A stretch of DNA of 47,586 nt, taken from positions 1 to 47,586 of the forward strand of contig CAUROB010000001.1 of the NCBI GenBank assembly GCA_963526655.1, given 5' to 3'. A model generated the notes under the pieces. The model was given only the letters and a program-made list of their open reading frames with translations. It ran no database searches and had not been told where the DNA came from. Position 1 is the first letter of the stretch, and each line of letters begins with the position of its first letter. A program made the position numbers and the translations under genes. Positions 18,651-36,606 of the stretch are shown here, in pieces. Source of the stretch: an uncultured Candidatus Saccharibacteria bacterium (GTDB taxonomy: Bacteria; Patescibacteriota; Saccharimonadia; Saccharimonadales; Saccharimonadaceae).

Positions 18651-19379
18651 TTAATAATCACGGAACTTGTAGCACCATGATGGACGTCCATTGCCGCATG
18701 GTACAGCGGCTCGACTATCTTTTTCTTTCTTGGTCGGTATGATGTAATTATTTACCTTCATATCGTAGTTATCTGGCGTCGCGCCAAGTTTAGCCAGTTT
18801 TTCTAATATCTGACTCAGGAGAGCTTCGCCATTACGTCCAGCCATAGTGATACAGATGCCAATTTTATGCGATTTCTTGATATCCGTGCGATACGGCTGG
18901 CAAGAAAATACTCGATAGTCTCTGTCCTCAAATGGTAAGTGTTGCAATATCGGGTTGGCTTTATCGATCTCTTTACCAACCCTATTCACTTCTCGACTAC
19001 CTAGACCATCAAAAACCTTGGCGTATTTTTTCTGTTTCAGTTCATTTTTTGCTTTGTCGGTTTTTGGCGTCAGGGCGAATAATAATTTTCGCTCCTTCCC
19101 TTTTTCCAGATCAAGCTCAACGGTATATGTGTCATAGCCGTCAGCGCTAAAACTAAAAGTATGTTTACCGCTTTTAACCGCTACGGGCTTGTCAGACTTG
19201 ATGATCTGATTTTTCACTGAGTCGTACGACATTTTAACAGTCTCTGGAGCAAAGGTCGCCAGTAATGTAGTATCGTGCGTGACTGTTTGAAATACATAAT
19301 ATGAGATAAACATAACAATCAGCGCGCCGATAATCACTGCACCGCCAATAATTTTTTGCTTTGTGATGACTGGCTGCAT
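18651..19379 (-). CDS. Bitopic membrane protein, last gene of T4SS-like run (PEGA-like segment)
   Basis: N-terminal TM; GKHTFSFSADGYDTY; SD AGAAAGGA upstream. Confidence 0.65.
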   Translation of the reverse strand: MQPVITKQKIIGGAVIIGALIVMFISYYVFQTVTHDTTLLATFAPETVKMSYDSVKNQIIKSDKPVAVKSGKHTFSFSADGYDTYTVELDLEKGKERKLLFALTPKTDKAKNELKQKKYAKVFDGLGSREVNRVGKEIDKANPILQHLPFEDRDYRVFSCQPYRTDIKKSHKIGICITMAGRNGEALLSQILEKLAKLGATPDNYDMKVNNYIIPTKKEKDSRAAVPCGNGRPSWCYKFRDY

Positions 19380-19391
19380 GATATTTCCTTT

Positions 19392-20630
19392 CTAGGTTTT
19401 GTTTGATTGAATGACGCGAACCAAGATATTACCTGGTTGAGTGAGTTGATAGTCAACAGATCCTTGCTTGATGAATATCGGTACTGTATCTCCAAGGGAG
19501 GCATTAGCGGCGACGTAACCTCCACCGACGTCACCAGTGTAAATCAAAGTATGTCCGTAGCCACCATGGCTTGGGTGGAGGAGGATATCACCTGGCTGCA
19601 AGTCTGAAGCAGATGGACGATCGATGATTTTGAATTTTTCTGGATGAGATTTTACATAAGAATATTGTGCTGTAGTGCCAATCGGTTCATAATCTTTATC
19701 TGCACCAGAAGTACGCAGCACCGTCGCTACAAATCTACCGCAGTCACTGTCTGAACTACCGACGACACTTGGGTTATTCTTTTTGACTGCATCGATATAT
19801 TCAGCCTTAGCCGTCTGGTTATTAGCCCCTTTGTCAGTATTTGGATTCCACGCCAACTGCTTGGCTGTATCGACGATGCTCTGCCCGGCGACACTAGATC
19901 CATTACCACTACAACCAGTTGCTGATGCTGAACTAATTTGTGCACCGCTCGAATCACCACCGGCGCTTGCCGCGATTTTCGATGGATCGCCGTCTTGGAT
20001 TTTACCGTTGTAGCTATTGAAAATCTCAGAAGCATACTGGGCACGGTTACCTTCTTCGCCTGCACCATACCGCTCAAACGTTTCACCAAACTCAACTGCC
20101 AAAGCGCTGACACCACCACCCGATTTGTCAGTGTGTTTAAGTAGCACCTTTAGACCAGCATTTTCTGCTCCGTTTAGCTCCTCCCAGAGGTATTCTAATT
20201 GCCCCTCGATGGTACTGTAATTTGGCTTCTTCTCTAGGTTGGTGCGGCGTCCACCCAGCCACTGAGCGATGCCGAAGGCACCGATACTGTTGAGCGCGCT
20301 CGGGTCAATGCGAGATTCCTGCTGGAGGTTACCAGCCACCGCTGCTGCTTGTACTAACGTTAGACCTTTGCCGGTAAAAAACTTAAGAACTTTTTCTACG
20401 TTTTCACCAGAAAGTTCACCAGTCGCGGTATTTTGGGTTGAGCAGATTTGACCGTTTGGATTGTTGATATTTATGTCGTTTAGAATGTAATCTTTATAGG
20501 GGATACCAGCCGGCTGATTCTTCTTTTCTTCTTCTTTTTTGTCTTTTTCTGGTGCTGCTGAAGAATTGGCGGTCAAAAATATCATACAACCCACCAAAGC
20601 TAATAGTAGACCGATAGTTACTCGTTTCAT
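19392..20630 (-). CDS. Secreted peptidoglycan hydrolase: phage-tail-type lysozyme + CHAP/NlpC-P60 domain (VirB1-like)
   Basis: Signal peptide MKRVTIGLLL; AAAVAGNLQQES..GIAQW..GRR lysozyme motif; DCGRFV, LQPGDIL, GHTLIY Cys-His dyad; ATGA overlap with upstream gene. Confidence 0.85.
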   Translation of the reverse strand: MKRVTIGLLLALVGCMIFLTANSSAAPEKDKKEEEKKNQPAGIPYKDYILNDININNPNGQICSTQNTATGELSGENVEKVLKFFTGKGLTLVQAAAVAGNLQQESRIDPSALNSIGAFGIAQWLGGRRTNLEKKPNYSTIEGQLEYLWEELNGAENAGLKVLLKHTDKSGGGVSALAVEFGETFERYGAGEEGNRAQYASEIFNSYNGKIQDGDPSKIAASAGGDSSGAQISSASATGCSGNGSSVAGQSIVDTAKQLAWNPNTDKGANNQTAKAEYIDAVKKNNPSVVGSSDSDCGRFVATVLRTSGADKDYEPIGTTAQYSYVKSHPEKFKIIDRPSASDLQPGDILLHPSHGGYGHTLIYTGDVGGGYVAANASLGDTVPIFIKQGSVDYQLTQPGNILVRVIQSNKT

Positions 20631-23600
20631 TGTACTCTCCTTGCGTAGTCCCAGTGCCACGGCTCATCCCTATACCAGTCAGGGTTACTATGATCCCATG
20701 CCCATGGTGGGTTGACAAAGCCGTATTTCGAGGCATTTGCTTTTAGCCATAGGAATGTTGGCGTATTGAAACTAGTGCCACCGACGTTAATATCTAGGGC
20801 TAGTCCATGACCATGTTTTGAGGTTCCTGCAGGAGCCATTGTAGTACCATCTGCTACATAACTCTGCTGTGTTGCTAAATCTCGGTATGATTCTTGAATT
20901 GTCATATACTGGCCACCATGCTCTTTGGCGTAAAGCTCATTTAGGGCGTCAAAAGCTTGGGCGGCTTTTGGATGCATGTAATGTCCTGGTGCGGTTTTTA
21001 GTTCACCCATGGCTGATAGCGGAATTTCACCATTTCTATATCCACCCCATGACGCAGGATCCTTACCAAAAGTCTGTGCTTCTTCCAGTTCTGGCGGACC
21101 GATAGCATCACCAACCGGTCCGCTATTTGGCTGTTGTGCCCCAGTGTTGGCTGATGGATCATCAATTTCTTTTGGATAATATTTACCTTCTTTGTCGTCC
21201 GCCATCAAGGCCAGGTTGCCAGCTACGGTTAATTCCAAGGCACATGGATCGGCCACACTGTACGTCGGGACTAAGTCGCCTTCATGAATCCCATAGCTCG
21301 CTTCACGCTCTTTGGCTTTGGTTGAACAGACAGCATCGGTGTACTGACTTGGATCGGCTTTATATACCGCTTCATCACTAAAGCCATGCCATGTCACGCC
21401 GAAAGCTCGCATAACAGCCGCTTGATCATATTTGGCGGCATGAGTGTTGGCTGGTGTAATAGCGGACGCCAGAGCGACTGGTGCGCGTGCGATTAATCGC
21501 ATGGTTGAAAAACCGGAAGTTGGCATAACGGCTAGTAATTGTCCAGCCACTGAACGCTTAAGTGTTGGGTCAAATAACTTCGCCATGAGTGGTTGTTCGC
21601 GGAACTCTTCGTCACGCTCTTGCTCAATCTGTTTTGCGAGCACACTGACTTGCTGGTTGGTGAGGCGTGCCCCACCAATGCCGTCTGGCTGTTTAGATCC
21701 TGAATCGGCGCCAGCTTGTCCAGCTTCAGTACTACTTTGCATAGTTGTTGTCAGTCCGCCGTGTAGAGCTTCAAAGTTATTGTTACCCGGCGCGTCAACC
21801 CCCACCTCTGGTATACCGAACAGCAAACTCACTGCCCAACCCATAGCTTTTTCGATCAAGCCTTCAGAGAGTTCAACCAGCTGCTTCAATCCTGGTAGTT
21901 CCTGTAAATAACTAAAGAACCAGCTAAATACCTTGCCGACTGTGTCGCCAACAAAGTCGATGATCGCGCCGAACGTACTATTCCAGGCTTCAGCTATCCC
22001 GGCCAACACTTGCCAGACAGGATATTTCGTAAAGGTAGTGTAGTCCTTAACAATCTTTTTTTCTGGACAGACAAGCTCACCGGGATCTAAGGCAACCACC
22101 TTTTCTTCACCACCAACCTCGCATTTGGTGCGAATACCACCGTCCTCGGCGTAAGCTGTTGGATATAGTAGTGAAGCTGCAGTGTTATTACCGCCAAACG
22201 TCGCTTGGAATATTGGTGCTGCTTCGGCGCCGTCAAATAGCGAGGTTGCTAACTCAACATGTTGAATATTATCAATCGTTCCCGCCCGAATTTGATCTCG
22301 CGTCAAGACCGGACTAGCTTCTTCATCATAAGTGAACGCGGTGTACAACTGCTTCTTTTGGTCAGCTCCGACAATTTCGATAATCTTTTCATTAACCGCT
22401 CCAACAATCTTCGCAACCAAATCAATTGCTCCAATAATGGCGTTTGCAGCTGCTATTTTCTTAAACAATTGTTTACTGATAATTTTACCTAGTGGTGTGT
22501 CCGGTGCTGCTTTGGACAGAGAGTCGATATTATTAAGAGCTTCTTTTTGGCCTTTAACTTTCTTCACCTTTTCATCAGCTTTTGTTTTATTGTCACCTGT
22601 CGCTTTTTCAGCCTCTTTTTCTGCTTCGCTAATCTTACTATCAAGGTCGTTATTTAATTTATCTAATGTGTCTTGGCATTTTTTAGCGTCAGTACCATCC
22701 AAACATCCTAAATACGCTGCAAAACGAGGCGACATTTTAGCGGTGATACGCGTATTCATATTTAGCTTGATCTTAGCCTTAAAGTCAGCATATTTCTGAC
22801 CAGCTTTCTCCGGTATGATGTTAAACTTTTTCACACCGTATTTTCGGTACAATACACGTTTAGACAGATAGCGCATGAAGTAGTTGCGCCCATGGACTTT
22901 ACGTGTCATCTTTTTGATATGACGACGCATATCTTTGTGAGATAATTCCTTTTCTACCCCCTGCAGGACAGAGTTCATATCTTTTGACTCAAGATGCATG
23001 GTAAATGAGGTCGCCTTACCACCCAGGGTGTTTCTACCGCTCGCATTAAAGACGGCCTTAACGTTTCTTCCTTCTTTTTCAAATTTAGCATCAAGCTGTT
23101 CTTCAAACCACGTGCTGTATTTTGTAGCTCCCAGGTGACACAAAACACCACCGCCAGCACAAAACACGAGATTGGCGTCGCCAGGATATGCGGTTTGCAT
23201 CATTTTCATGGCGACCCAACGAGTGGTGATATACTCGAGTCGTTGGTTGATGGCGTGCTGTGGCACAGAGCTGAGCTGGTCGGTGATGGTGGAGACCATG
23301 GCATCAAGCTTATATGGCAAAATTGTGAAAAATAACATCATTAAGCCAAACAACCCTCCACCGATACCGGCTGTAGCGCCCCATTTTCTACGATTCATAT
23401 TTGCCAAGAGGTTACCACGCTTTTTACCGCCGGCCTTACCTAAAGGTGATCGAGAATACAACTGTTCTTGACTATTAACACTGTCCGCGGCGTTGAGTCC
23501 GTCGTCTTTCTTGTCGCCATCATAAAAATTATCATTGGTGGCATTATTCTCCATGGAGTTCAGATATTTAGACGTTTGTCCAGAGGCCGGATTGAGCCGT

Positions 23601-23641
23601 TCATCAACATCTGGATCGGTCGTATAATCAATCCGCGCCAT
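20627..23641 (-). CDS. Large membrane-associated T4SS-linked protein with C-terminal M15 (VanY/LdcB-type) Zn peptidase domain
   Basis: SYRD..Q, SKHGHGLALD and EPWHW motifs at C-terminus; TM near residue 90-110; coiled coil mid-protein. Confidence 0.8.
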   Translation of the reverse strand: MARIDYTTDPDVDERLNPASGQTSKYLNSMENNATNDNFYDGDKKDDGLNAADSVNSQEQLYSRSPLGKAGGKKRGNLLANMNRRKWGATAGIGGGLFGLMMLFFTILPYKLDAMVSTITDQLSSVPQHAINQRLEYITTRWVAMKMMQTAYPGDANLVFCAGGGVLCHLGATKYSTWFEEQLDAKFEKEGRNVKAVFNASGRNTLGGKATSFTMHLESKDMNSVLQGVEKELSHKDMRRHIKKMTRKVHGRNYFMRYLSKRVLYRKYGVKKFNIIPEKAGQKYADFKAKIKLNMNTRITAKMSPRFAAYLGCLDGTDAKKCQDTLDKLNNDLDSKISEAEKEAEKATGDNKTKADEKVKKVKGQKEALNNIDSLSKAAPDTPLGKIISKQLFKKIAAANAIIGAIDLVAKIVGAVNEKIIEIVGADQKKQLYTAFTYDEEASPVLTRDQIRAGTIDNIQHVELATSLFDGAEAAPIFQATFGGNNTAASLLYPTAYAEDGGIRTKCEVGGEEKVVALDPGELVCPEKKIVKDYTTFTKYPVWQVLAGIAEAWNSTFGAIIDFVGDTVGKVFSWFFSYLQELPGLKQLVELSEGLIEKAMGWAVSLLFGIPEVGVDAPGNNNFEALHGGLTTTMQSSTEAGQAGADSGSKQPDGIGGARLTNQQVSVLAKQIEQERDEEFREQPLMAKLFDPTLKRSVAGQLLAVMPTSGFSTMRLIARAPVALASAITPANTHAAKYDQAAVMRAFGVTWHGFSDEAVYKADPSQYTDAVCSTKAKEREASYGIHEGDLVPTYSVADPCALELTVAGNLALMADDKEGKYYPKEIDDPSANTGAQQPNSGPVGDAIGPPELEEAQTFGKDPASWGGYRNGEIPLSAMGELKTAPGHYMHPKAAQAFDALNELYAKEHGGQYMTIQESYRDLATQQSYVADGTTMAPAGTSKHGHGLALDINVGGTSFNTPTFLWLKANASKYGFVNPPWAWDHSNPDWYRDEPWHWDYARRVQ

Positions 23642-23643
23642 GA

Positions 23644-25485
23644 TTATACTGCTCCATATCCACCAATTGGTGTTTCAGACGGAAGTTGTTGTTTCACGGG
23701 TGAAGTATTGATTAGATCATACTCAGTATCACTGGCCTGAATCTGGATATGTACGTGGTTTTGTCCAGCAAAGAACAGCCCCTGCCCAACTGGGAAATTC
23801 GCTAGGCGTTTCTGCTCTTCCTCGGTTAACTTAAACACACTAGAAAGCACATCAACGGCACTTGAGGATTGTTTAAGGAGTAGCTGCATGGATGAGTTGG
23901 CGACGATAGCGCGGCCCATTTTACTGCCCACAAAGTCCTCGACGTCCTGGGTGATGGTGGTAAGTCCTAGTTGATATTTTCGGGCTCGCTTCGCCAGGCT
24001 AAATAAGAAGCTAGCTGAGTCTTCATATTTCATCAACTGCCATGCCTCGTCAACGATCAACATACGTTTCTTCTGGTCAGTTCGAGTGATGTTCCAGATG
24101 TGATTTAGTACAATATACATAGCTGTTGGGCGCAGTTCGTCTTCTAGGTCTCGGATATTAAAGACCACCATGGCGTTATTGATATCGATATTACTCTGCT
24201 GACTGAAAATACCAGCAAAGGTACCTGAAGTAAATTTACGCAGACGCTGTGCTAACTGTGGACCAGTGCCGCCCATGTGTAGTAATGTATCGTACAAATC
24301 ATGAATGGTTGGCGGTGTTGAATTGTGGGTCAATGGATCTGATGTGATACCAACACGAGCGTAGGTGTCGATCAACGCCTGGTCGATATCTGCTTCCTCT
24401 GCCGCGGTCAGTCCGATAGAACCAGCCACTGAACCGCCCAGCATTTGACGCAACAAACCGTGCAGCGTAACTAGGTTGGCGCGTAACGCGTCGTCTGCTT
24501 CTTCGGTGTCGATCACTCGTGGCAGATCAAATGGATTGATGCGCGTGTCACTATTCAAACTCAAGCGTATATGACTACCACCCACGGCGTCACATAGCTT
24601 TTGATACTCATTTTCCGGGTCGATGATAACGATGTCAGCACCAATCATCATACTACGCAGCGCTTCCAGTTTCACGGTAAATGACTTACCAGCACCAGAC
24701 TTTGCAAACACCACCATGTTGGCATTTTCTAGAGAAAATCGGTCAAAGATCACCAAACCATTGTTGTGCATATTGATGCCGTACAGCACACCCTTGCCGT
24801 CAGTGAGGTCAGCAGAGGTGAATGGGAAGCTGGTGGAAATGGCACCAGTGTTCATGTTGCGGCGGATTTGCAATTGGTCCATCAACTGAGGAATGGTGCT
24901 GTTTAGTCCCTGTTCTTGCTGGTTTGACGCTACTTTACTAAAGATAAGCTGCTGACCAAAGATTGTTTCAATTTTGTGTTGAATAAAATTCAACTCATCA
25001 AGGCTGTCGGCATAAATCGTCACATATAACCCATAACGGAAGAATTTTTCTGACCCAATCTGCAGCTGGTTACGCAGCTCTTCGGCGTCCTGCAAGGCAG
25101 CTTCCATGGCTGGGTCACGCACACGTCCCTTCTCTGCGTTGATATTCATACTAGCTTCCAGCTGAGTCACTTTTTTACGCAAATTGTTCAGCACCACCTG
25201 AGTGTCGACTGGGTAGATAAACATGCTGATATCCAACACCTCGTCGATATTAATCACTGAACTCAACCAACCAGTGTAAATTTCACGAGGATAACCATAG
25301 ACGTAGATGGTGCGACCATACTTGGCACCCAGTCGGAAATAGCTCGCTTGAATTTCCACACTACTTGGTGCAATAAAGTCGCGCAAAGTTCTCACACCGG
25401 TCAAGAAGGCTTGCTCGACTTCGGCCTGTTCGCGAGCACGCTGTTGAGCGGCAATGTCGATGGCGTCTAGTTTTTTCTTAGCCAT
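23644..25485 (-). CDS. virB4: VirB4-like type IV secretion ATPase
   Basis: Walker A AKSGAGKS, IDPENEY, INPFDL, Walker B MLIVDEAW, RARKY, ITQD. Confidence 0.9.
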   Translation of the reverse strand: MAKKKLDAIDIAAQQRAREQAEVEQAFLTGVRTLRDFIAPSSVEIQASYFRLGAKYGRTIYVYGYPREIYTGWLSSVINIDEVLDISMFIYPVDTQVVLNNLRKKVTQLEASMNINAEKGRVRDPAMEAALQDAEELRNQLQIGSEKFFRYGLYVTIYADSLDELNFIQHKIETIFGQQLIFSKVASNQQEQGLNSTIPQLMDQLQIRRNMNTGAISTSFPFTSADLTDGKGVLYGINMHNNGLVIFDRFSLENANMVVFAKSGAGKSFTVKLEALRSMMIGADIVIIDPENEYQKLCDAVGGSHIRLSLNSDTRINPFDLPRVIDTEEADDALRANLVTLHGLLRQMLGGSVAGSIGLTAAEEADIDQALIDTYARVGITSDPLTHNSTPPTIHDLYDTLLHMGGTGPQLAQRLRKFTSGTFAGIFSQQSNIDINNAMVVFNIRDLEDELRPTAMYIVLNHIWNITRTDQKKRMLIVDEAWQLMKYEDSASFLFSLAKRARKYQLGLTTITQDVEDFVGSKMGRAIVANSSMQLLLKQSSSAVDVLSSVFKLTEEEQKRLANFPVGQGLFFAGQNHVHIQIQASDTEYDLINTSPVKQQLPSETPIGGYGAV

Positions 25486-26411
25486 TAGAAATCTCCTCCA
25501 TATGGTGATTCACCATTTCCCTTGCGGATATAAGTCGTCGTCAGATCATTTGGGTTGCGTACTAATGGCTGACGTGCTGCAGTATCAGGATTATAAGAAA
25601 TATAGAACAATTCTCCAAGCTGCCTGGTATTAAGTTGTAAACTCTTCACACCCATGGCAAATAAACCGTTCATTACCGTGTCGATACGGTTTTTGATTTC
25701 ATCTTTTGCCTTCTCGTACATTGGCTGATCAATCCTGGTGATCAATGTTTCCTTTTTGCCGCTAAAGAAACTATCAAACAGACCCTTCGCTTGCTGCTTC
25801 ATAGCATTAACATCGCCACCAGGAAAATACGGTACTACGATGAAAAAGCGCTTGTCCATAATGTTTGCCTCTTGTGATAACACCTCTATGAAGTTCATAT
25901 AGTCATCCATCAACACATTTAGTAACATATTGTCCTGAGAGCGGCGAATGTGTGACAATCGATCCAGATATGGGCCAATATCAACGCGCTGTGACCGTAC
26001 CAGGATCTGAACCGGGAAATAGAGCGAGTTGAGTAGGTTTTGATAGCTAAATTCAATAGCCTCTCGCTCACGGGTACTCATCAAGTCAAAGTTGATGGAT
26101 TGACATTCTATTACCGCTCGAAAACTACCATCGCTCATAATGATCATATTTTCGCGCATCTCTGAAAATAGCAACGTATTTTGTGTACTGATGGCGCTCT
26201 TTTTATCTTTCGGAGTTGGTGGAGTTTGCGGATTTGGAGCTGGTTGACCAGGCTGAGTCATACCGGGCTGCATTGGTGGCATCGGCTGACCAGGTTGTGG
26301 TTGCTGTGGTTGTGGTTGTGGTGGTAAAGCTTGGCTGGGCTGCCCAGAAACAACCGGCGGTGTCGTCGGGTTGGGTGGTAGTTGGTATGGTTGTTGATTA
26401 TCTGGTTGCAT
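25485..26411 (-). CDS. T4SS protein resembling a detached VirB4/TraC N-terminal region, with Pro/Gln-rich N-terminus
   Basis: DGSFRAVIECQSINFDLMS..E and KRFFIVVPY; translationally coupled to virB4. Confidence 0.65.
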   Translation of the reverse strand: MQPDNQQPYQLPPNPTTPPVVSGQPSQALPPQPQPQQPQPGQPMPPMQPGMTQPGQPAPNPQTPPTPKDKKSAISTQNTLLFSEMRENMIIMSDGSFRAVIECQSINFDLMSTREREAIEFSYQNLLNSLYFPVQILVRSQRVDIGPYLDRLSHIRRSQDNMLLNVLMDDYMNFIEVLSQEANIMDKRFFIVVPYFPGGDVNAMKQQAKGLFDSFFSGKKETLITRIDQPMYEKAKDEIKNRIDTVMNGLFAMGVKSLQLNTRQLGELFYISYNPDTAARQPLVRNPNDLTTTYIRKGNGESPYGGDF

Positions 26412-27373: not shown

Positions 27374-29893
27374 TTAACTAGTTAAATCTTCGGGCTTAAT
27401 CCCCAGAGAAAGAGAGATTTCTCGAATTGTACCACCGGTCTTACCAATTCGACTACTAAACCGAGGATCGGTTTGTGCCAAAACAAGGTTCTTGCGCAAC
27501 GTATCCAGACCAGCTTCATTGATTTGCGAGACAAAGCTTTGGTCGCTCAACGCTTCCTTTAGCGGCTTTAAGTAAGCCAAGTCTGAACCGACAATCGCTT
27601 CGGTCGACAAACCACCGATATTAAGGTTATCAAGCATAAGTTTCCTCATGTAGTCTGGGCCGTTCATATTAACATTGTTGGCCTTGATAGCCGCTGCAGC
27701 TGCACCACCTAACCAAGCTGGTTTAGCAGAGTTGGACAGCAGCGCGTCACCGTATTCTTGCGCTAACTCATCATTTAGTGCACCAAAGTCGGTTTTTTGC
27801 AGTAAGCTCTGGATAGCTACGGCGTCTTTACCACCCAATACATGGTGAACCGCTGCATAGCGGATATCATCAGTAACCGTCAAGTTGCGCCGGCTGACAC
27901 CGTTTGCCAAGTCCACCATATCATCATTGCTGACGTTCATAGCATTGAGGATAGTCATAGCGTTCTCAATCGATTCCTTATTAGCCTTGGTGATGGTACT
28001 ACGCGCCGCTGACCATACGCGCTGTGAGCCACGATCCTTGCCGAAGTACATATTTTCCACGGAACCTGCTTGGGCTCGCAACCCTTCCTGGTCGGCTAAG
28101 CTCTTTGCTAATATGTGATCATTAACACGCTGAATACTGTTTTTTCGTAGCCCTTGAATCGCAATATTGCGCGCTTCTTGTTGAGTTTCTTCCTGTAGTG
28201 TTTCATAGCGGCGGGCAGCTCTCTTTTTCAGGTTAGCTGGTGTTTGTGTATTCTGATCCTTATACTTAACTTTCATCTCCTCATAAGCGTTTGCGGTCGT
28301 GACATCAGCTAGCGACAATTGGTCAGCGGCAGCTCGCGACTCAATGTCAGCAATTTGGTTAGCGCGGGAAAGTTTGTAGGCTGCGTCAGCCCGTTTTTGG
28401 TAGGCTTCTGAACGAGTTTTGAATTTACGCGAGCGGTAATTAGCCCAGCGCCCCACTTTGCGTATACCATTGTTCAGCTCACCATCGGCTTTACTTAATG
28501 AATTCTTGTGTGCTGCCAATTGACTGCGGTCACGGGACCAGTTCTTTGTACGATCGATAACACCACGGTTCTTGTTGTTGACCATACCAGCTACTCGACC
28601 CAGCACACCGCCGCTTAGCTTAAATACCAGCGGTGCGATGGCTAGGGCTGAAACTTGCACTGCCAGTCCTAAAATCACCATAATCCATGAATTGGCGTTT
28701 TGTAAAATGATCATTCCTGCCAGCTGTGCTCCGCCAAAGACCACTGAAAATGCTGGGAAGAATATCACCAGGGTGAACATTAAGTTTCGCCATTTTTCAA
28801 AGAATTTCTCGGTGCCTGGTAACAGATAGCACACGAAAGCCAGCGGTGATATGACCGTCAGAATGATCAGTAATGCCTGTCGTGCCGCCAGGATGATAAA
28901 GACGACCGTCAGGGTTAATAAGATACTAGCGATGATAGGCAGTAACCAGTAAGCGGCTGAAGCTAATGACCCGCCAGTTACTGCCAGCGCGCCATAGACC
29001 CCTGCTGTTGCTGCGCCACCAGACAGAACCATAGCCACCAAGTCACTCCAGGTTGGTAGTGGAGCACCATTAAACGCACCATTTGCTGACACCTGAGAAC
29101 GAATTTCGTTGAACATATCTTGTAGGGCGACACCAAAGATATTCGACAGATCGATCATCGCAGCACAGATGATGAAAGACAGGTTAACTAAAATTGCGGC
29201 AATAACCACTCGTGGAACTAGTTTTTTGATACCGTAGTTACTAATGCCAACTGAGGTGAGCTGTGAATAAATAACGATCAAAAAGGCGACGATGAACGCT
29301 GCATTGGCGATGTTTCGCATGATATCCCAGGCGACCTTTACCCCAGAGTTATTGTTGGAGCTGTCTATCGCTGGTGTAGTCATCAGGTCGGAAATCCAGG
29401 TATACACTTCATCAATTCCTGAGGCGATCCCATTAGAGATTGGGCAAATAAACCAACCCGTTCCCCCTCTCACATCACATTCTGACTCACTAGGGTTACT
29501 GTCTTGTTTAACTTCAATGTCTTCTGGTTCGCCTGCCTGTGTTGGTGTGCTGCCGTTTAGAGTGTATTTAACATATTTCGCGGTAGTAGCAGTTCGTGGA
29601 TTGCTATTTCCAGCGAAAAATACTACGGTTGACTGATTACCTTCGGTAGCCTCGTAGACCCAGTCTTTACTGTCACGACCAAGCAGTTTTTTACGAGCTG
29701 TGTCGTTAACTGGTTTGAGTGTTTTACCGTCAACGACCAGGGAATCGCTTTTCCACTGGGCTTCAGCGGCATAGACCGAAGTAGAGTTGATGAGTATACC
29801 ACTAAAAAACCCGACAAAAATACCAATAGTCAGTATGGCAAACCACTGCGACCGACGTATTTGCGGACGCACTCGCATTTTCAACCACTCCAT
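27374..29893 (-). CDS. VirB6/TrbL-like polytopic membrane protein (paralog 2)
   Basis: GWFICP, WDIMRNIAN, SNYGIKKLVPR, ISPLAFVCYLLP..W core; soluble N- and C-terminal extensions; start uncertain (29893 or 29878). Confidence 0.8.
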   Translation of the reverse strand: MEWLKMRVRPQIRRSQWFAILTIGIFVGFFSGILINSTSVYAAEAQWKSDSLVVDGKTLKPVNDTARKKLLGRDSKDWVYEATEGNQSTVVFFAGNSNPRTATTAKYVKYTLNGSTPTQAGEPEDIEVKQDSNPSESECDVRGGTGWFICPISNGIASGIDEVYTWISDLMTTPAIDSSNNNSGVKVAWDIMRNIANAAFIVAFLIVIYSQLTSVGISNYGIKKLVPRVVIAAILVNLSFIICAAMIDLSNIFGVALQDMFNEIRSQVSANGAFNGAPLPTWSDLVAMVLSGGAATAGVYGALAVTGGSLASAAYWLLPIIASILLTLTVVFIILAARQALLIILTVISPLAFVCYLLPGTEKFFEKWRNLMFTLVIFFPAFSVVFGGAQLAGMIILQNANSWIMVILGLAVQVSALAIAPLVFKLSGGVLGRVAGMVNNKNRGVIDRTKNWSRDRSQLAAHKNSLSKADGELNNGIRKVGRWANYRSRKFKTRSEAYQKRADAAYKLSRANQIADIESRAAADQLSLADVTTANAYEEMKVKYKDQNTQTPANLKKRAARRYETLQEETQQEARNIAIQGLRKNSIQRVNDHILAKSLADQEGLRAQAGSVENMYFGKDRGSQRVWSAARSTITKANKESIENAMTILNAMNVSNDDMVDLANGVSRRNLTVTDDIRYAAVHHVLGGKDAVAIQSLLQKTDFGALNDELAQEYGDALLSNSAKPAWLGGAAAAAIKANNVNMNGPDYMRKLMLDNLNIGGLSTEAIVGSDLAYLKPLKEALSDQSFVSQINEAGLDTLRKNLVLAQTDPRFSSRIGKTGGTIREISLSLGIKPEDLTS

Positions 29894-29901
29894 TACTGTA
29901 A

Positions 29902-29930
29902 ATGGTAGCATTTTTTCGCGCAAAAGTCAA
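29902..29930 (-). promoter_or_regulatory. Sigma70-type promoter of second virB6
   Basis: Minus strand TTGACT-17 bp-TACCAT with extended TG; ATG 8 nt downstream. Confidence 0.65.
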
Positions 29931-29940: not shown

Positions 29941-32900
29941 CTATCGGCCAAACGCAGTAGGCGGTCGGTTGCGTCGGTGTTGTGACCGTCCAGTGCCACT
30001 GGTACCACCCTGGTCAATATAGCTCGGTGGGATACTGGTAGCACTCGTCGGATCAGAAGATCTGTCTACCTGCACAGTAACGTTAACCTGTGGAGCTGGA
30101 GCCTGTGTTTGACCACCTGAAGATGAGGACAATGAATCTGGTTTTGGAGCTTCTGCTCCTCGTGCCTGTTCTTTGATGGCGTATTGACGATCAGGGGCCA
30201 TGCTTGGTGCTTGAGAAGGTGTTGACTGCGAACTAGCCATATTAGACTTTATTGTGTCAATTGCCGACTGAAGATTAGGCTGACCTTCTTGACCCAAAGC
30301 CTTAAACACTGGTGCGGTCTTACCATTGGCTTGACCCATGTATCGTGAGCTATCGGACACTTCAGCAGCCCTACTGTTTGCCAAGCCTCCCTTGTCGTAA
30401 GCATTAACAAGTGCCTCTGCACTTTGCGTAGATAAATTATCTACAGAAAGGTTTTCAAATGCTTTACTTGTCATTTGGGCTAGCTCGTCTCGACTAACAC
30501 CATAAGCCTGCTGTCCTTTACCTATTGCGTCAAAACCGGCCACTCCGGCAGCGGCCACTCCGGCATCGTATTTCTTGACATTGGTGAGAGCATCCCCCAT
30601 CTCGATGCTGGTAATTTTACCACCCTCTTCCAAGTATTTACGCAACTGTGCTGTTCCCCAGGCACCCGATTGGGATAATTTTTCTGCAGCAGCCGCTTGA
30701 ACGTATTTGTCATCTGACCGTAGAGCCTCAGTTGCATTGCTGTTGTATTCGAATCGCAATTTTTTGGCTGCAGCTTCTTGAGATAATTTATGAATATATT
30801 CCTGGCCACCAGTAGTAGCTGCCGCAAACCCAAGGCGCTTGTCTAGTTCACCTCCAGAAGCTTCAGCCAGCCCTTCTCGGTAGCGCTGCTGTTCGCTTTG
30901 TTCTGCCAGAGCTGCTCGGGTTTCTCTGTCGAGTGAGCGTTGGTTTATTTTTCTAAAGCCCCGTTGCAGACCACCACTCCAGACGCGTCTAGGAGCCTTA
31001 CTCTTGCTAAAATCTTTCGCCATAAATTCACGACGTTTCATACCTGCTCGACGTTTAGCAAACTTATTTCCCGCATTAAGCGCTGGTGCTGATGCCTTGT
31101 TCAATAGTCCATTTGCCCGCCCCATCAGGTTGCCGATGATAGCATTGGATTTTAGAGCCATACCAAGGATGACGAAAGTACCAGCAAATAAAAGTGCCAA
31201 AGCCATCAGTTGTTGTACCACTCCACCGGTTTTGTCAGCAAGGGCAGTAAAGGCTAATAATTTTAATCCGCCGTAGTATATTGCCGCCAAAGGATAGAGG
31301 AAGACCATACCGGTGAAGACTTTTTTCCACTTGTCAAAGACACTTTGGGTGTTTGGTAAAATCCAAGCTGCAAAGGCCAATGGAGCTAAGATTGCCAGTA
31401 CCGGTATCACTGCTGATCGAAATACCAATGCTAACAACCCTGAGACGATGCCGATCACACCTGGAACGATTGCCATAAGCACAAACATAAACAGGGTTCC
31501 AATCCCGAAAACTGAGGCCGCAATTGTTCCACCAATTAGTGTCGCTCCAGCCGCCGTGCCGCCACCTGCTAAAATTGCTGTCAATAAAGCACCCCAGCCA
31601 ACATCGGTAAGATTCATGCTTTGTATCGGTGTTGTGATTATTCCTAATAAGGTGCTACCGATAATGTTTGCAATATCAACGATGATTTGGATAACAAAGT
31701 AGGATATATTAACTGCAACTGCAGCGATGATGAAACGAGGTAACATTTTCTTGATGCCGTAATTGGATATACCGACATTCGACACCTGTGAGATGATGAT
31801 TAGTATAAATACCAGTGCCAATAGAACGTTAGCAAGGTCTCTCATGGTTTTCCATGCATCATATGTACTTCCTGTTGCTTGTAAAGGACTTGTAACCAAA
31901 TACCCTTCTAACATTCCCCAGACTGAGTCGGCAAAATCAGCTAACTTTTCAATGGCTGGGCAGAGAAACCACCCTACGCCAGTCAATTCACTTGTACAGG
32001 TCTTCTCTTCCTTTTCTTCTCCCGCTCCTTCTGTTGACTGGGCTGTAGCATCAGCACTTTGTTCTGGAGTATCCCCTACGGAAAGTTCTTTTTGTTCATC
32101 CTTATGTTCAGACGCATATTTGGCAAACTTATCAAAAGCACCCCTGTTGTTTTGGAGCCAAGAACCGATATCGCTACAACTTACTTCGACTAATCCTCCC
32201 TCAGTGTCGTCGGTTGCTGCCAACCAGACTTTTTCATTACCCTTGGAAGTTTTATAAATCATGTCGGCGGTTTTGCCACCTGTACTGGTAAATGGAATTT
32301 TGTAGTAATAATACCCCGAGCTATCTGGATTTTCTTTAGGGATTTCCTTGAGAGATTTATCACCGCTAGCAGAACAACCGCTAGCAGAACTAGTAAATGT
32401 TTTTGAATACATATACCATTGTTCGGCACTGCCTGAAGCTATAGAAGGTAGGCTACCGGTGGCATTTTTGATACCGTCTTTGAAACGTTCTTTAATGGCC
32501 GCGCCACCCTTTTTTGGTGCACAACCACCCGGAGGATTTTCGTCAGGAGCTAAATTACTACTAGAATAGTAAACAGTGTATGAAGTAAAATAATTTGGTT
32601 TTGATACACTCCGTAAGTCGTTAACATTTTGTGTAAAACGACCCCAAGAATTCCATTCATACTTTTTACATCTTTCCCAATTTCGAAACACCCAGCCAGC
32701 TTTGGTTTGATCAATAAAAAATTTACCACCCATATGCCGGTAGAAGTCAGCATATTTAGAAGAGCCCTCCCAAATATCAATCCCCGCTTTTAGGAGGCTA
32801 GCACAGCTGAGATCTCCACCGATTTGTTTTGTGATGGGGTCGACGCCTGAGTAGGATTTAATACCGCCTTTGGTATTTTTTCCCACAAAGGTATTTGCAC

Positions 32901-33159
32901 GCTCCTCATTATCACCGTTAGATGGCGCCCAGTTAGAGTCGGTGCTTGTCGTGTTTCTATACCGCATCCCCTCGAAATCGGTCATACATGTCCAATCGTT
33001 GGTGCCACGCTTCATCAAATTAGCGTAAAGTAGTGTTGACTCAACTTTTTGTTTTAATTTCAAATTTTTCGCAGCTTCTGCCTGCGGAGCAAGTAGCACT
33101 GCTGATATAAGTGCCACCACTAGTGTGGAGAGTACTATCAACCCTCGCTTTTTACTCAT
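29941..33159 (-). CDS. VirB6/TrbL-like polytopic membrane protein (paralog 1, large Cys-containing N-terminal domain)
   Basis: Signal peptide MSKKRGLIV..AEA; GWFLCP, WKTMRDLAN, SNYGIKKMLPR, LAPLAFAAWILP..W core. Confidence 0.8.
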   Translation of the reverse strand: MSKKRGLIVLSTLVVALISAVLLAPQAEAAKNLKLKQKVESTLLYANLMKRGTNDWTCMTDFEGMRYRNTTSTDSNWAPSNGDNEERANTFVGKNTKGGIKSYSGVDPITKQIGGDLSCASLLKAGIDIWEGSSKYADFYRHMGGKFFIDQTKAGWVFRNWERCKKYEWNSWGRFTQNVNDLRSVSKPNYFTSYTVYYSSSNLAPDENPPGGCAPKKGGAAIKERFKDGIKNATGSLPSIASGSAEQWYMYSKTFTSSASGCSASGDKSLKEIPKENPDSSGYYYYKIPFTSTGGKTADMIYKTSKGNEKVWLAATDDTEGGLVEVSCSDIGSWLQNNRGAFDKFAKYASEHKDEQKELSVGDTPEQSADATAQSTEGAGEEKEEKTCTSELTGVGWFLCPAIEKLADFADSVWGMLEGYLVTSPLQATGSTYDAWKTMRDLANVLLALVFILIIISQVSNVGISNYGIKKMLPRFIIAAVAVNISYFVIQIIVDIANIIGSTLLGIITTPIQSMNLTDVGWGALLTAILAGGGTAAGATLIGGTIAASVFGIGTLFMFVLMAIVPGVIGIVSGLLALVFRSAVIPVLAILAPLAFAAWILPNTQSVFDKWKKVFTGMVFLYPLAAIYYGGLKLLAFTALADKTGGVVQQLMALALLFAGTFVILGMALKSNAIIGNLMGRANGLLNKASAPALNAGNKFAKRRAGMKRREFMAKDFSKSKAPRRVWSGGLQRGFRKINQRSLDRETRAALAEQSEQQRYREGLAEASGGELDKRLGFAAATTGGQEYIHKLSQEAAAKKLRFEYNSNATEALRSDDKYVQAAAAEKLSQSGAWGTAQLRKYLEEGGKITSIEMGDALTNVKKYDAGVAAAGVAGFDAIGKGQQAYGVSRDELAQMTSKAFENLSVDNLSTQSAEALVNAYDKGGLANSRAAEVSDSSRYMGQANGKTAPVFKALGQEGQPNLQSAIDTIKSNMASSQSTPSQAPSMAPDRQYAIKEQARGAEAPKPDSLSSSSGGQTQAPAPQVNVTVQVDRSSDPTSATSIPPSYIDQGGTSGTGRSQHRRNRPPTAFGR

Positions 33160-33182
33160 GTTTTGATGCCCTTTCAGAAAAA

Positions 33183-33226
33183 ACATATACACTACAAATT
33201 GTAGTGTATATGTCCCAAAAGCGCAA
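33183..33226 (-). promoter_or_regulatory. Perfect 31-bp palindrome overlapping predicted virB6 promoter
   Basis: acatatacactacaa-a-ttgtagtgtatatgt (33183-33213); minus strand TTGCGC(33221-33226)-17 bp-TACAAT(33198-33203). Confidence 0.7.
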
Positions 33227-33234
33227 ATGCTTAA

Positions 33235-34296
33235 TTATGACTGTTTTTCTTCTTGGATTTCTTTATAGCTTGCCTGGTGAGGGTTGAAATCTAGCTTACT
33301 AATAACAACAAGGCCTTCATTGGTCTTTTTGAATGAAATATAGCCATCTTTTATACCTTTGATAGACAATCCCAGGATACGGTCTAGGCCTCCAAGGTTG
33401 TTACTACCAACCTTATCAACTAAGCTTGTGATTGTTTCAGAATCCTCGGCTTCGGTATCTGGCCGACAACTAAACTTCATGCCAACTGTTTCATTGGAGT
33501 ATTGTGCGTTATCAACAGACATTTCTTCGATAGATATTTTTCCTAAGAATTTGTCCGGTTCGGCTGGAGAGGTAAATGAAGGTAAGGCTGTACCCCACTT
33601 ATTTTCTCTACGCTCAGCGTTATCGTCTTTTTGTAGATATGCTTCTGAAGATACGAGTTGTGTCAGGAAGGTTGTTAGACCGTTTCCAAGATCAAGTGAT
33701 TTTGGTTTGCCATCCATATCAACGCCCGGGTCTTCGAAAACGGTCCCCTTTAAGTAATTTTCTGCAAAGTAAGAAACTAACTCATCTGCCAACTTAATAG
33801 CACCTCGTTTGGTTGTTGGCTGACCCAGTCTATTAAGGGATTGTACTTCATAGTATTCTGACACTGGTGGGTAACTTTGTTCGTTGGTGTCAGTAAACAC
33901 ATTACATATCTTTTCGAAGATATTAGAGAAATGTTGCCCTAGTTTCTGAGGGTCATTGTAAGCATTTGCAGGAATAGTCAGTGCTTCAAACGCTTTTCGA
34001 CCTTCAGGAATCCTGGAGTCAAAAAAGTGCTTACAAAGTTCTTCTATGGTCTGAAACTCACTCGCTTCTAGTTTTTTTGGACCTTCAGGAGTTGGAGATT
34101 TTTCTGATGAAGAAGTATCATCATTGCTTTCTTCATGTTTAGGCGGTTGTACTGGTGTTTGTTCTGTAGAATTGTTCTGGCTACTACAGCCTGTCACACC
34201 CTCTGCTACAGCCACTGCTCCAGCCCCACAAAGCATCAGAAACCTTCGGCGGTTTAATGTGTCTTTTTTTGAATCGCTTGGGTTATAATCTTTCAT
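33235..34296 (-). CDS. Hypothetical exported protein with twin-arginine-like signal and lipobox-like Cys
   Basis: 353 aa ORF; LNRRRFLMLCGAGAVAVAEGVTGC then Ser/Thr/Pro linker. Confidence 0.7.
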   Translation of the reverse strand: MKDYNPSDSKKDTLNRRRFLMLCGAGAVAVAEGVTGCSSQNNSTEQTPVQPPKHEESNDDTSSSEKSPTPEGPKKLEASEFQTIEELCKHFFDSRIPEGRKAFEALTIPANAYNDPQKLGQHFSNIFEKICNVFTDTNEQSYPPVSEYYEVQSLNRLGQPTTKRGAIKLADELVSYFAENYLKGTVFEDPGVDMDGKPKSLDLGNGLTTFLTQLVSSEAYLQKDDNAERRENKWGTALPSFTSPAEPDKFLGKISIEEMSVDNAQYSNETVGMKFSCRPDTEAEDSETITSLVDKVGSNNLGGLDRILGLSIKGIKDGYISFKKTNEGLVVISKLDFNPHQASYKEIQEEKQS

Positions 34297-34417: not shown

Positions 34418-34442
34418 AAAAACACCCTGTCGCTTGGGTGTC
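34418..34442 (-). terminator. Intrinsic terminator after tRNA-Asp
   Basis: Minus strand acaccc-loop-gggtgt followed by T run. Confidence 0.7.
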
Positions 34443-34444
34443 TG

Positions 34445-34522
34445 TGGCGCGCCCGACCGGATTCGAACCGGCGATCTCCTCCGTGACAGGGAGGCGTGAT
34501 GGACCAACTTCACTACGAGCGC
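34445..34522 (-). tRNA. tRNA-Asp(GTC)
   Basis: Cloverleaf, anticodon loop cTGTCAc, GTTCGAATC T-loop, CCA end. Confidence 0.96.
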
Positions 34523-34588
34523 ATGTCAACTAGCTCGATAATACCAAAGACTTCCCTAATATTCAAGAGCTACCAGGTGAAATGCTGT

Positions 34589-34617
34589 TTGCATTTTGAG
34601 CGACAATATCTTACAAT
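34589..34617 (+). promoter_or_regulatory. Predicted promoter of pilin array
   Basis: TTGCAT-17 bp-TACAAT, divergent from tRNA-Asp. Confidence 0.55.
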
Positions 34618-34654
34618 TAGTCACATATCAACCTAATATTGGTAGAACAATTCA

Positions 34655-35044
34655 ATGGTAAACAGAAATTTCTTTACAAAAACCATCATTACTGTAGCTT
34701 TACTAGTCGGTTTTGTTGTCTCGACTCCAGTGTTTGCCGAGGAAGCAGACTCAAGTAAATGTGCTGGTGTTCCTACCTCAACTATAGAGTGTGGCGGTAA
34801 GAGTGGTAAAGAGGCTATTTTTGACATTGTTAAACAGGCAGTAAAAATTTTAACCATGGGTGTAGGTGTCACAGCTGTTGGTGCGGTAGTTTATGGTGGG
34901 ATATTGTTTTCATCATCTGGAGATAAGCCAGAAAACATCAAAAAAGCTCGCGAGATCTGGATCAATGTTGTGATAGGGTTACTGCTATACGCCTTCTTTG
35001 TCACACTGACTCAATTCTTAATTCCAGGAGGAGTATTCTCATGA
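34655..35044 (+). CDS. VirB2/TrbC-like pilin 1
   Basis: Signal peptide, two hydrophobic helices joined by YGGILFSSSGDKPENIKKAR..INVVIGL. Confidence 0.8.
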   Translation: MVNRNFFTKTIITVALLVGFVVSTPVFAEEADSSKCAGVPTSTIECGGKSGKEAIFDIVKQAVKILTMGVGVTAVGAVVYGGILFSSSGDKPENIKKAREIWINVVIGLLLYAFFVTLTQFLIPGGVFS

Positions 35045-35466
35045 TCAAACGAGCAATTGTAGCGCTGACCTTGATAGTTACAGGTAGTTTTGGTATGGCG
35101 TTCGTCAGTACACAGCCTGCTCTGGCTGGTGTTTGTGACGAGCGTGGTCGTGTTATAACTCTAAAACCTTGGTTTTATAACTTAACATCTGGTAATTCGT
35201 GTGATTTAAAGAGTCCGAGTGACGTTGGTGGTTTTGGCCCATATATCTGGCGTATTGCCCTCAACCTCATTGAAGATCTATTTCAAATCACGGGCTATAT
35301 TGCAGCAGGATATATCATATACGGTGGTTTTCTGTTCATCACTAGCTCAGGATCGCCAGATCGGGCTGTTCGTGGACGAAAAACAGTCTTTAACGCCATT
35401 ATTGGCTTAGTTATAGCCATCGCCTCAGTGGGTGTAGTAAACTGGGTGTCAGGAGCATTATTATAA
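35041..35466 (+). CDS. VirB2/TrbC-like pilin 2
   Basis: Signal peptide; YGGFLFITSSGSPDRAVRGRKTVFNAIIGL; ATGA overlap. Confidence 0.82.
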   Translation: MIKRAIVALTLIVTGSFGMAFVSTQPALAGVCDERGRVITLKPWFYNLTSGNSCDLKSPSDVGGFGPYIWRIALNLIEDLFQITGYIAAGYIIYGGFLFITSSGSPDRAVRGRKTVFNAIIGLVIAIASVGVVNWVSGALL

Positions 35467-35468
35467 CT

Positions 35469-35765
35469 ATGGAAAAGTTTATCGTTCAAATTGTTAGCCA
35501 ACTAGGTTCCCCAAGTGACGTAGGGATTCCTGATCGTAAAGATGATAAGGTGGCATTACAAAGTATAGCGAACCTGGTGTTTGCTGTCTCGGCGGTTGTG
35601 GCTATCATCTCCATCATTGTCTACGGTATCATGTATAGTGTATCTGCTGGCGATCCAGGTAAAATTTCTAAGGCTAAAAATGGTATTATCTATTCGGTGG
35701 TTGGTTTGCTGGTGGTATGGTGTGCTTTTGTTATTACAAATTATGTCGCAGGGAGGTTTAACTAA
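35469..35765 (+). CDS. VirB2/TrbC-like pilin 3 (no obvious signal peptide)
   Basis: YGIMYSVSAGDPGKISKAKNGIIYSVVGL. Confidence 0.82.
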   Translation: MEKFIVQIVSQLGSPSDVGIPDRKDDKVALQSIANLVFAVSAVVAIISIIVYGIMYSVSAGDPGKISKAKNGIIYSVVGLLVVWCAFVITNYVAGRFN

Positions 35766-36139
35766 TGAAAAAAACCGTAACTATTACCGCTACTTTGACT
35801 CTCGCCATAGTTGGTGGTTTTTTGCTGTCACAAGCTGCTTCAGCGGTTGGTATTTATGATGCATGTAGTACCGATCCAAATAACATTGTTTGTGCTAACA
35901 GTAGTGAATCAGTTGATCCTGTCATCAAAACAGTCATCAGATATCTGCTGATTATCTCTGGTATTGTATCGGTTGTGATGGTTATTATTGGTGGGTTAAA
36001 ATATACTACATCAAACGGTGACAGTGCCAAGCTAAGCTCTGCTAAGAATACCATCATGTACGCCATCATCGGTGTGATCATCTCTGCTCTTGCGTATGCT
36101 ATCGTTGATTACGTATTTCTTCGCATAATTGGTAAATAG
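35765..36139 (+). CDS. VirB2/TrbC-like pilin 4
   Basis: Signal peptide; GGLKYTTSNGDSAKLSSAKNTIMYAIIG; TAATG coupling. Confidence 0.85.
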   Translation: MKKTVTITATLTLAIVGGFLLSQAASAVGIYDACSTDPNNIVCANSSESVDPVIKTVIRYLLIISGIVSVVMVIIGGLKYTTSNGDSAKLSSAKNTIMYAIIGVIISALAYAIVDYVFLRIIGK

Positions 36140-36225
36140 AGCCCAACACAGTATAGACAGACCGTAAAATATGGTATAATGAAGTAAAATAACAATCAAT
36201 TTCCCAAGGAAAGGAAACGAAATTC

Positions 36226-36606
36226 ATGAAAAAAACCATTATTAAAATAGCCGGCGCGTTTGCCCTTCCTATGTTGGTTATGGGTGTCGTATTTTTGGCG
36301 TCTGGCGATAACGCATTTGCCCAGGTTCGAGAAGGTTTGAACAAGGTTCAAAACGCCAACACTGGTGCTAGTGCTAACGTTGATGACATCATCTCAAAGT
36401 CAATCAACTTTGCATTGATGGCCATTGCGATTGTCTCTGTGTTTATGTTGATCCTTGGTGGCTTTAAATACACCACATCAAATGGTGATAGTGCCAAGGT
36501 GACATCTGCTAAGAATACCATCATGTACTCTTTGATCGGTCTGTTGATTGCTATCTTTGCCTACGCTATCGTTAACTTTGTGGTCAATAAGGTTACCGGT
36601 AACTAG
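36226..36606 (+). CDS. VirB2/TrbC-like pilin 5 (candidate major pilin)
   Basis: Signal peptide; GGFKYTTSNGDSAKVTSAKNTIMYSLIGL; own TGG-TATAAT (36175-36180) and AAGGAAAGGA SD. Confidence 0.87.
   Translation: MKKTIIKIAGAFALPMLVMGVVFLASGDNAFAQVREGLNKVQNANTGASANVDDIISKSINFALMAIAIVSVFMLILGGFKYTTSNGDSAKVTSAKNTIMYSLIGLLIAIFAYAIVNFVVNKVTGN

Follow-up and report, generated by a model that had tools for sequence, protein, structure and literature searches.

Several type IV secretion systems (T4SSs) have been described in Patescibacteria. In Southlakia epibionticum ML1, the tables of a transposon sequencing (Tn-seq) study list the cluster SEML1_0004-0019, all genes of which are essential in host co-culture except SEML1_0012 (PMC10633639). 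The survey by Quinonero-Coronel et al. 2025 records VirB4 in 2,417 of 3,035 Patescibacteria genomes, 441 pilin arrays and rare relaxases, and describes loci near the origin (dnaA/dnaN) with no relaxase and with pilin arrays and hydrolases downstream of virB4 (PMC12102498). A T4SS with a 'secreted array' was described in TM7x (McLean et al. 2020, PMC7427843), and the Patescibacteria systems have since been reviewed (PMC12857230). Here we analysed a 47,586-nucleotide stretch of DNA, hereafter the window, from an uncultured Candidatus Saccharibacteria bacterium. This window makes up contig C1 of an 88%-complete genome of 733 kb, whose nearest named relatives are oral Saccharibacteria, Candidatus Nanosynbacter records among them. 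The T4SS locus that it carries beside dnaN almost certainly belongs to the known Patescibacteria/Saccharibacteria T4SS, and we regard it as a vertically inherited system derived from Gram-positive (MPF-FATA) conjugation machines.

The locus is already known in print and adds nothing new by itself; an earlier annotation made from the letters alone (the sequence-only reading) had also said that the broad class is not new, and the same interpretation appears in PMC12102498 and PMC10633639. The main question for an essential machine is what is carried and in which direction. New here are two leads on the cargo, an overlooked essential coupling-type ATPase encoded outside the window and a fast-changing lipobox gene within the locus, and both make cargo and direction directly testable in genetically tractable strains.

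A fixed secretion locus beside dnaN

Orthologues of the VirB4 ATPase, assigned by identity (69-100%) together with synteny, are found in 59 of the 61 genomes of the order, and in 41 of the 42 that are at least 90% complete; one of the two exceptions has a distant paralogue only and the other, 86% complete, has none. Eighty loci were collected through the TrsD-like partner of VirB4; dnaN is reached in every one of the 53 that continue 9 kb downstream. Six stretches that duplicated loci already in the collection were left out. In ten of ten other families examined, the gene order runs dnaA-dnaN-recF, two to four envelope genes, a large peptidase fusion, virB4, trsD and prgI, followed by one VirB6 gene (two in one family) and then five to seven pilins. 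No relaxase was seen in the window, and six relaxase families whose controls were positive were not found in the 88%-complete genome, the MOBC search being uninformative (no control positive) and MOBH not searched. There is likewise no att-like repeat at the locus, and both tyrosine recombinases of the genome lie elsewhere, on contigs C3 and C20. The proposal that the locus is part of the fixed core of an epibiont and not mobile, with no relaxase, integrase or att repeat, is therefore upheld by its near-universal presence, its constant place beside dnaA-dnaN and the lack of a relaxase; a patchy distribution among relatives was not seen. The recombinase on C20 adjoins phage-like genes at a contig end, and this region (C20:7754-11547) is probably a prophage or island unrelated to the T4SS.

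The sequence-only reading had also remarked that this slot usually holds recF-gyrB. The locus is no replacement for recF, which lies between dnaN and the locus in all ten other families and in S. epibionticum. It is absent from that position in all 53 long loci of near relatives, and in this genome recF is on contig C6 and gyrBA on C23; since the other families keep it in place, recF has only moved away in this genus.

The locus and its neighbours comprise the following features.

15927..17294, plus strand: dnaA, context (PF00308, E 1e-68)
17549..18649, plus strand: dnaN, context, converging on the locus with a 1-base gap (PF00712/02767/02768)
18651..19379, minus strand: membrane-anchored PEGA-like protein, 242 residues (transmembrane segment (TM) 10-28; PEGA-type matches weak, E 0.03-0.04)
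19392..20660, minus strand: secreted two-domain wall hydrolase in the VirB1 role, with a phage-tail-lysozyme domain (PF18013 at 86-216, E 2.5e-23) and a probable CHAP/NlpC-type cysteine peptidase; QES at 114, DCxxFV at 306 and GHTLIY at 369 are presumably the motifs of these domains; counterpart SEML1_0006
20627..23641, minus strand: membrane-anchored protein of 1004 residues (TM 90-108) with a C-terminal M15B/VanY peptidase (PF02557 at 887-1000, E 3.7e-12; zinc-site motifs at 941 and 993); no family assigned to the large N-terminal part; counterpart SEML1_0007
23644..25485, minus strand: VirB4 ATPase (NF045971, 383.7 bits against a cut-off of 325; PDB 4AG5, E 6e-52; Walker A at 261, Walker B at 476)
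25485..26411, minus strand: TrsD-like VirB4 partner (weak match, NF041427, E 7.7e-4, below cut-off; N-terminus matched by NF045975; same position as SEML1_0009)
26419..27348, minus strand: PrgI/VirB3 (PF12666 at 5-90, E 6e-10, over cut-off; two TMs)
27374..29923, minus strand: extended VirB6-like protein a (VirB6a), 849 residues (7 hydrophobic segments; ESM Atlas TrbL/VirB6)
29941..33192, minus strand: extended VirB6-like protein b (VirB6b), 1083 residues, homologous to VirB6a and mosaic among close strains
33235..34296, minus strand: lipobox protein, 353 residues, with a twin-arginine-like signal, Cys37 and a predicted NTF2/cystatin-like fold; counterpart SEML1_0012
34445..34522, minus strand: tRNA-Asp(GTC), separating the minus-strand operon from the pilin array (ARAGORN)
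34655..36606, plus strand: array of five VirB2-like pilins of 129, 141, 98, 124 and 126 residues (PF18895 over cut-off in 5/5)
36676..37149, minus strand: Hsp20, a conserved neighbour; counterpart SEML1_0020, essential in S. epibionticum
39659..40129, minus strand: sixth, detached VirB2-like pilin; counterpart SEML1_0024, non-essential

Profile searches and topology recovered every part named beforehand (VirB4 and its partner, PrgI, two VirB6-like proteins, two hydrolases and five pilins) where the sequence-only reading had put it. VirB4, PrgI, the pilins and both hydrolase domains score over curated cut-offs, and VirB4 also matches a solved structure. The VirB6 genes had been placed directly after dnaN; the operon is instead on the minus strand, reading towards dnaN and converging on it, with the PEGA-like gene and the two hydrolases as the neighbours of dnaN and the VirB6 genes 9-14 kb off. 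The lipobox gene, the tRNA and the sixth pilin, which lies beyond the range noted earlier, had been missed.

The VirB6 assignment is based on the best ESM Atlas cluster (TrbL/VirB6, 0.94, 218 of 256 features) and on a topology of 6-7 hydrophobic segments. Neither gene has a Pfam match of its own, and Pfam TrbL matches weakly in three of 13 homologues; a VirB6 profile gave chance-level matches only against solved structures (best E 0.033), and the VirB6a core found no match among plasmids by tblastn. VirB6a and VirB6b share 27% identity over 392 residues. The five array pilins, divergently transcribed from the operon, are 21-43% identical in pairs. Hsp20 is a constant neighbour of the array and may chaperone pilins or substrates; comF lies beyond it, before the sixth pilin. 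In six loci, extra cargo genes of about 380 residues (Fic-like and AAA-ATPase-like by eye) are inserted next to tRNA-Asp, in the interval that separates the pilins from the lipoprotein gene.

A coupling-type ATPase and the direction of transport

Two VirD4-like genes are encoded outside the window, one on contig C2 (880 residues) and one at C23:2215-5124 (969 residues); both products have Walker A and B motifs and a hydrophobic segment at the N-terminus. The earlier statement that VirD4 is missing is thus correct for the window and wrong for the genome, and the absence of a coupling protein that it implied is probably an error. The C23 product has the attributes by which we recognised coupling proteins, namely an N-terminal membrane anchor, Walker A/B motifs and TraG-D_C or TrwB_AAD_bind similarity; TraG-D_C is over its cut-off, and with the NCBIfam models the scores fall far short of the cut-offs set for those families. 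A VirD4-like match is present in 60 of the 61 genomes.

The run of genes on C23 (131 residues, plus; 144, plus; 969, plus; 192, minus; 534, minus; gyrB; gyrA; 143, plus) corresponds to SEML1_0140-0147 in order, strand and size, and the orthology of the 969-residue ATPase with SEML1_0142 is by this synteny, not by alignment. In the Tn-seq tables SEML1_0142 is called essential (ES) at all three time points (PMC10633639). It is followed by non-essential genes on the opposite strand, which makes a polar effect unlikely. This essential VirD4-like ATPase has therefore been sitting in a published table without discussion in the main text (PMC10633639). From the essentiality of its predicted syntenic orthologue, we infer that the C23 paralogue would serve this T4SS. 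PMC12102498 calls the t4cp of ML1 non-essential, which fits SEML1_0293 and not SEML1_0142. The ATPase is the last gene of a three-gene operon (C23:1344-5124; a 4-TM protein, a 144-residue protein and the ATPase) upstream of gyrBA. The genes corresponding to this operon, SEML1_0140-0142, score as growth-defective or essential in the Tn-seq data, and the operon may be a detached T4SS coupling module.

We take the T4SS to serve epibiotic growth; that protein export is its main function is in our judgement an evenly balanced proposition. On this proposal, type IV pili would first attach the epibiont to its host and the two hydrolases would then open peptidoglycan at the contact site. VirB4/TrsD, PrgI and the two VirB6 paralogues would build the membrane channel, several non-redundant VirB2-like subunits would make up the pilus, and the unlinked C23 ATPase would load protein substrates to be delivered to the actinobacterial host. 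Every counterpart of the locus other than the lipoprotein is tabulated as essential in co-culture in S. epibionticum (PMC10633639). The catalytic domains of the hydrolases are swapped between lineages, as expected of enzymes aimed at different walls: the large protein carries VanY, M23, M14 or GDSL, and the second hydrolase combines a lysozyme, SLT, glucosaminidase or amidase domain with CHAP, M23, C39 or NlpC/P60. The VanY region is also the part that varies most among close strains.

A number of points weigh against export. No T4SS substrate has been demonstrated by anyone, and the wall on which the hydrolases act could be that of the epibiont itself. Neither a conserved VirB8 nor a conserved VirB11 was identified; PF00437 gave four matches, with sizes fitting PilB/GspE (587-592 residues) and PilT (378 residues), no VirB11-specific model having been run. 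As to the coupling protein, SEML1_0142 still had 9-11 insertion sites at T0-T2, and the main text of the same study found no coupling protein recognisable in the T4SS and left SEML1_0142 unnamed (PMC10633639). By Pfam coordinates, the counterpart of the C2 gene is the non-essential SEML1_0293. Moreover, essentiality of SEML1_0142 alone is no proof of a role in the T4SS, as HerA/FtsK-like ATPases have other jobs. Finally, PMC12102498 favours import.

Import, in which the same machine takes in host DNA, RNA or other macromolecules and the VirD4-like ATPase is the import motor, is a tentative possibility of real weight. Archaeal Ced and Ted, which it would resemble, have no relaxase and use homologues of VirB2, VirB4 and VirB6. 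Here CedB/CedD models match VirB4 and both VirD4-like proteins weakly, but these matches fall far short of the cut-off, and the conjugative models score better. Import is proposed in PMC12102498, comEC is dispensable for growth (PMC12102498), and tubular structures and RNA feeding have been reported for another member of the Patescibacteria (10.64898/2026.06.21.733656). Import leaves unexplained, however, the lipobox proteins in genomes without an Lgt match. The two directions are not mutually exclusive.

A pilus used only for adhesion or wall-breaching, with no passage of macromolecules, seems quite improbable. It would account for the five to seven divergent pilins of each array, each tabulated as essential in S. 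epibionticum (PMC10633639), and for the variable extracellular N-terminal region of VirB6b; attachment, however, is already ascribed to type IV pili (PMC12206443, PMC12857230), and the essential VirD4-like ATPase is left without explanation. The least probable reading by far, an integrated conjugative element or its remnant, can point to the MPF-FATA ancestry, the tRNA inside the locus, a GC content of 45.2% against 47.8% for the genome and the incompleteness of both the genome and the relaxase search, but is already largely refuted by the fixed position in 11 families, the near-universal presence, the lack of an att repeat or of a linked integrase or relaxase, and the quite different look of a patchy second VirB4 system in relatives that resembles an integrative conjugative element (ICE).

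That second system is compact, with a VirB4 of 37-39% identity, and present in seven of the 61 genomes, with VirD4 directly linked in all four cases examined and a serine recombinase in one of them. The system consists of a pilin, a pilin-VirB6 fusion, PrgI, TrsD, VirB4, a CHAP or M23 hydrolase and the linked VirD4. A ParB-like gene and the serine recombinase stand beside one copy, and no relaxase was recognised among the few neighbours scanned.

The lipobox gene and its VirB6b neighbour

In strains that share 98-100% identity in DnaA, DnaN and VirB4, the gene at 33235-34296 falls into three allele classes, 31-48% identical between classes and 80-100% within. Defining its slot by position and requiring an open reading frame of at least 180 residues, we found a lipobox protein in 55 of 56 loci; the DNA covered contained no such frame in the remaining 24 of the 80. 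A twin-arginine-like motif is present in 29 of the 55 and an N-terminal NPSxS-like motif in 49, and the lipobox cysteine is the sole invariant column in 32 aligned members. The 73 mature domains fall into nine groups unconnected by BLAST, and profile comparison between groups gave no link (18% and 0.7% probability). No Pfam or NCBIfam family matches the lipoprotein; its 11 homologues are all close, and its Atlas matches are under 0.9. Two groups were folded (pLDDT 71 and 79), and both models are NTF2/cystatin-like, the same NTF2-like fold that is tabulated for the non-essential SEML1_0012 (PMC10633639). Foldseek returned nothing at E 0.001 for the lipoprotein model. In a structure comparison of both models, VirB8-family entries tied with generic NTF2 proteins (Z 5.3-6.5; root-mean-square deviation 3.2-4.7). 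In one lineage (four loci) the gene points the opposite way to the operon, suggesting a separate promoter for it. NPSxS was tried as a general effector tag and rejected, the signal profile giving essentially one strong match per genome.

The enzymes that would mature such a protein were looked for across the order, and neither Lgt nor LspA was found in any of the 61 genomes, in a search whose positive controls matched in 10 of 14. A profile built from 20 Patescibacteria Lgt proteins found nothing in five genomes (best E 0.15 in this one), that search having no control. Across the phylum, 103 of 150 well-assembled genomes gave an Lgt match, and the enzyme thus appears to have been lost in Saccharimonadales while about two thirds of Patescibacteria keep it. 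The lipobox signal is kept by selection in a lineage in which no lipoprotein-maturation enzymes were found. TatC, of the twin-arginine translocation (Tat) pathway, was found in 20 of the 61 genomes, not in this one, and is patchy even inside one genus (6/36). Two other lipobox proteins were picked out in this genome by filter (C8:7759-8226 and C42:99-797), and the one of them that was tested keeps its cysteine in 12 of 12 homologues examined, down to 41% identity. At C20:7153-8595, a 480-residue protein carries a Tat signal (PF10518) in a genome without Lgt, LspA or TatC matches; it and the C8 and C42 proteins have polar N-terminal extensions before the signal and are further candidates for host-processed substrates. 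We found no description of this lipobox/Lgt paradox, or of exclusion in Saccharibacteria, in the open literature, including PMC13622651, PMC13194787, PMC12419801 and PMC9166423; subscription journals, bioRxiv supplements and the supplements of PMC12102498, PMC7427843 and PMC12592800 lie outside that scope.

VirB6b varies in a related manner. Among near-identical strains its N-terminal extracellular region, membrane core and cytoplasmic tail are exchanged independently as blocks, and the core (residues 401-680) occurs in four types, with the VirB6a core almost invariant. In 22 close strains the lipoprotein class tracks the adjacent VirB6b residues 401-680: 40-residue windows starting at 401, 481, 521, 561, 601 and 641 were matched in 0 of 500 shuffles and that at 441 in 5 of 500. 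Core type agrees with lipoprotein class in 19 of the 22 strains (0/5000 shuffles), compared with 13 for the N-terminal part, 11 for the C-terminal part and 15 for either single loop. The association is absent for the VirB6b N-terminal part, which is physically nearer, and for the VirB6a core, the pilins and the hydrolases. As thresholds were chosen after the alignment was seen and the shuffles ignore the kinship of the strains, the co-variation is suggestive only. A strict one-to-one pairing of alleles was rejected, since it fails in three of the 22 strains and two core types accompany class I.

For this gene we slightly favour a VirB8-like accessory or surface protein retained on the epibiont, whether through an uncleaved signal anchor or through lipidation by an unrecognised enzyme, and varying under pressure from phage or host defence; its association with VirB6b would then reflect a direct partnership inside one cell or shared ancestry. 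For two groups unrelated in sequence, the top structural matches of the predicted models include the VirB8-family entry 3WZ3 (Z 5.6 and 6.3). In one clade, all four TatC-positive genomes carry the twin-arginine form and their TatC-negative kin do not, which argues against processing by the host and weakens the twin-arginine form as a sign of host Tat use. The same is true of the locus in ten other families, where no lipobox gene was seen; this absence marks the gene as an accessory of oral lineages. However, five of 14 genomes in which TatC was not found also have twin-arginine signals, including one that is assembled as a single contig and 99% complete, and an uncleaved anchor gives no reason for keeping the cysteine. 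VirB8 proteins are conserved and required. With 31-48% identity between allele classes, nine BLAST-unconnected groups and a non-essential counterpart, this family is unlike such a subunit.

Other attributes recall entry exclusion: a predicted lipid or membrane anchor, a non-essential counterpart and a gene encoded with the T4SS. YddJ, the exclusion protein of ICEBs1, is lipid-anchored and recognises a loop in ConG, a homologue of VirB6 (10.1101/2021.01.25.428195). The ConG loop lies between the third and fourth TM, and the window most associated with lipoprotein class here, 521-560, lies between VirB6b hydropathy segments 3 and 4. A Gram-positive-type T4SS, non-essentiality (here of the counterpart) and a lipid anchor (here predicted) are shared; the allele specificity of YddJ maps to the membrane region of a VirB6 homologue, to which the suggestive co-variation here may correspond. 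YddJ presumably has a cystatin-like fold as well. YddJ differs in being made by the displaying cell from the transferred element, the protein here is much larger, and the likeness does not come from sequence. Since no DNA transfer is expected here, the lipoprotein itself would have to be delivered.

We consider it unlikely, though worth stating, that the prolipoprotein is injected through the T4SS, loaded by the VirD4-like ATPase, lipidated by the host and used to block superinfection through cognate VirB6b. Host Sec or Tat together with Lgt/LspA would export and anchor it on the host membrane, where it would recognise the VirB6b of later arrivals and block their entry, amounting to plasmid-style entry exclusion in which a protein, and not a gene, is what passes into the host. 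The Tn-seq study raises superinfection blocking as a possibility and reports that most attached cells never become productive (PMC10633639). Conversely, two different strains were seen to share a host cell without visible exclusion (PMC12206443), which favours retention on the epibiont. Host processing with exclusion is less likely than an unrecognised lipidating enzyme or an accessory, VirB8-like role within the epibiont. If the epibiont matures the protein, an unrecognised lipidation route exists. If the host does, the lipobox becomes a one-line filter for T4SS substrates in Saccharibacteria; the prolipoprotein would be the first named Patescibacteria T4SS substrate, and the superinfection block raised by Wang et al. 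(PMC10633639) would gain a candidate gene.

Elsewhere in the window, on the other side of the origin, positions 322-13708 hold a cell-surface polysaccharide cluster (ABC transporter, glycosyltransferases, WsaF, RmlD and DUF2142), within which a 774-residue open reading frame (6494-8818) received no assignment.

Comparison with described systems

The nearest described relative is the T4SS of S. epibionticum ML1, compared here from the tables of PMC10633639 and not by sequence alignment. Beside dnaA-dnaN the two systems carry the same genes, almost unchanged in order and strand as far as Hsp20, comF and the detached pilin, and both have two VirB6 genes and a Tat-signal NTF2-like gene within the cluster. 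Here recF has gone from the slot, there are five pilins where ML1 has six, the lysozyme protein is shorter and a single PEGA-like gene stands at the position of two in ML1, SEML1_0004/0005, which are essential (Tables S1/S2, PMC10633639). The lipoprotein gene is upstream of both VirB6 genes here and between them in ML1. A 'virB8' is reported for TM7x in PMC12592800. The Patescibacteria MPF-FATA-like clade (PMC12102498) and the TM7x T4SS (PMC7427843) share with this locus VirB4, TrsD, PrgI, VirB6 and the VirB2 array, the place near dnaA/dnaN, the absence of a relaxase and the unlinked VirD4, and in architecture the three do not differ.

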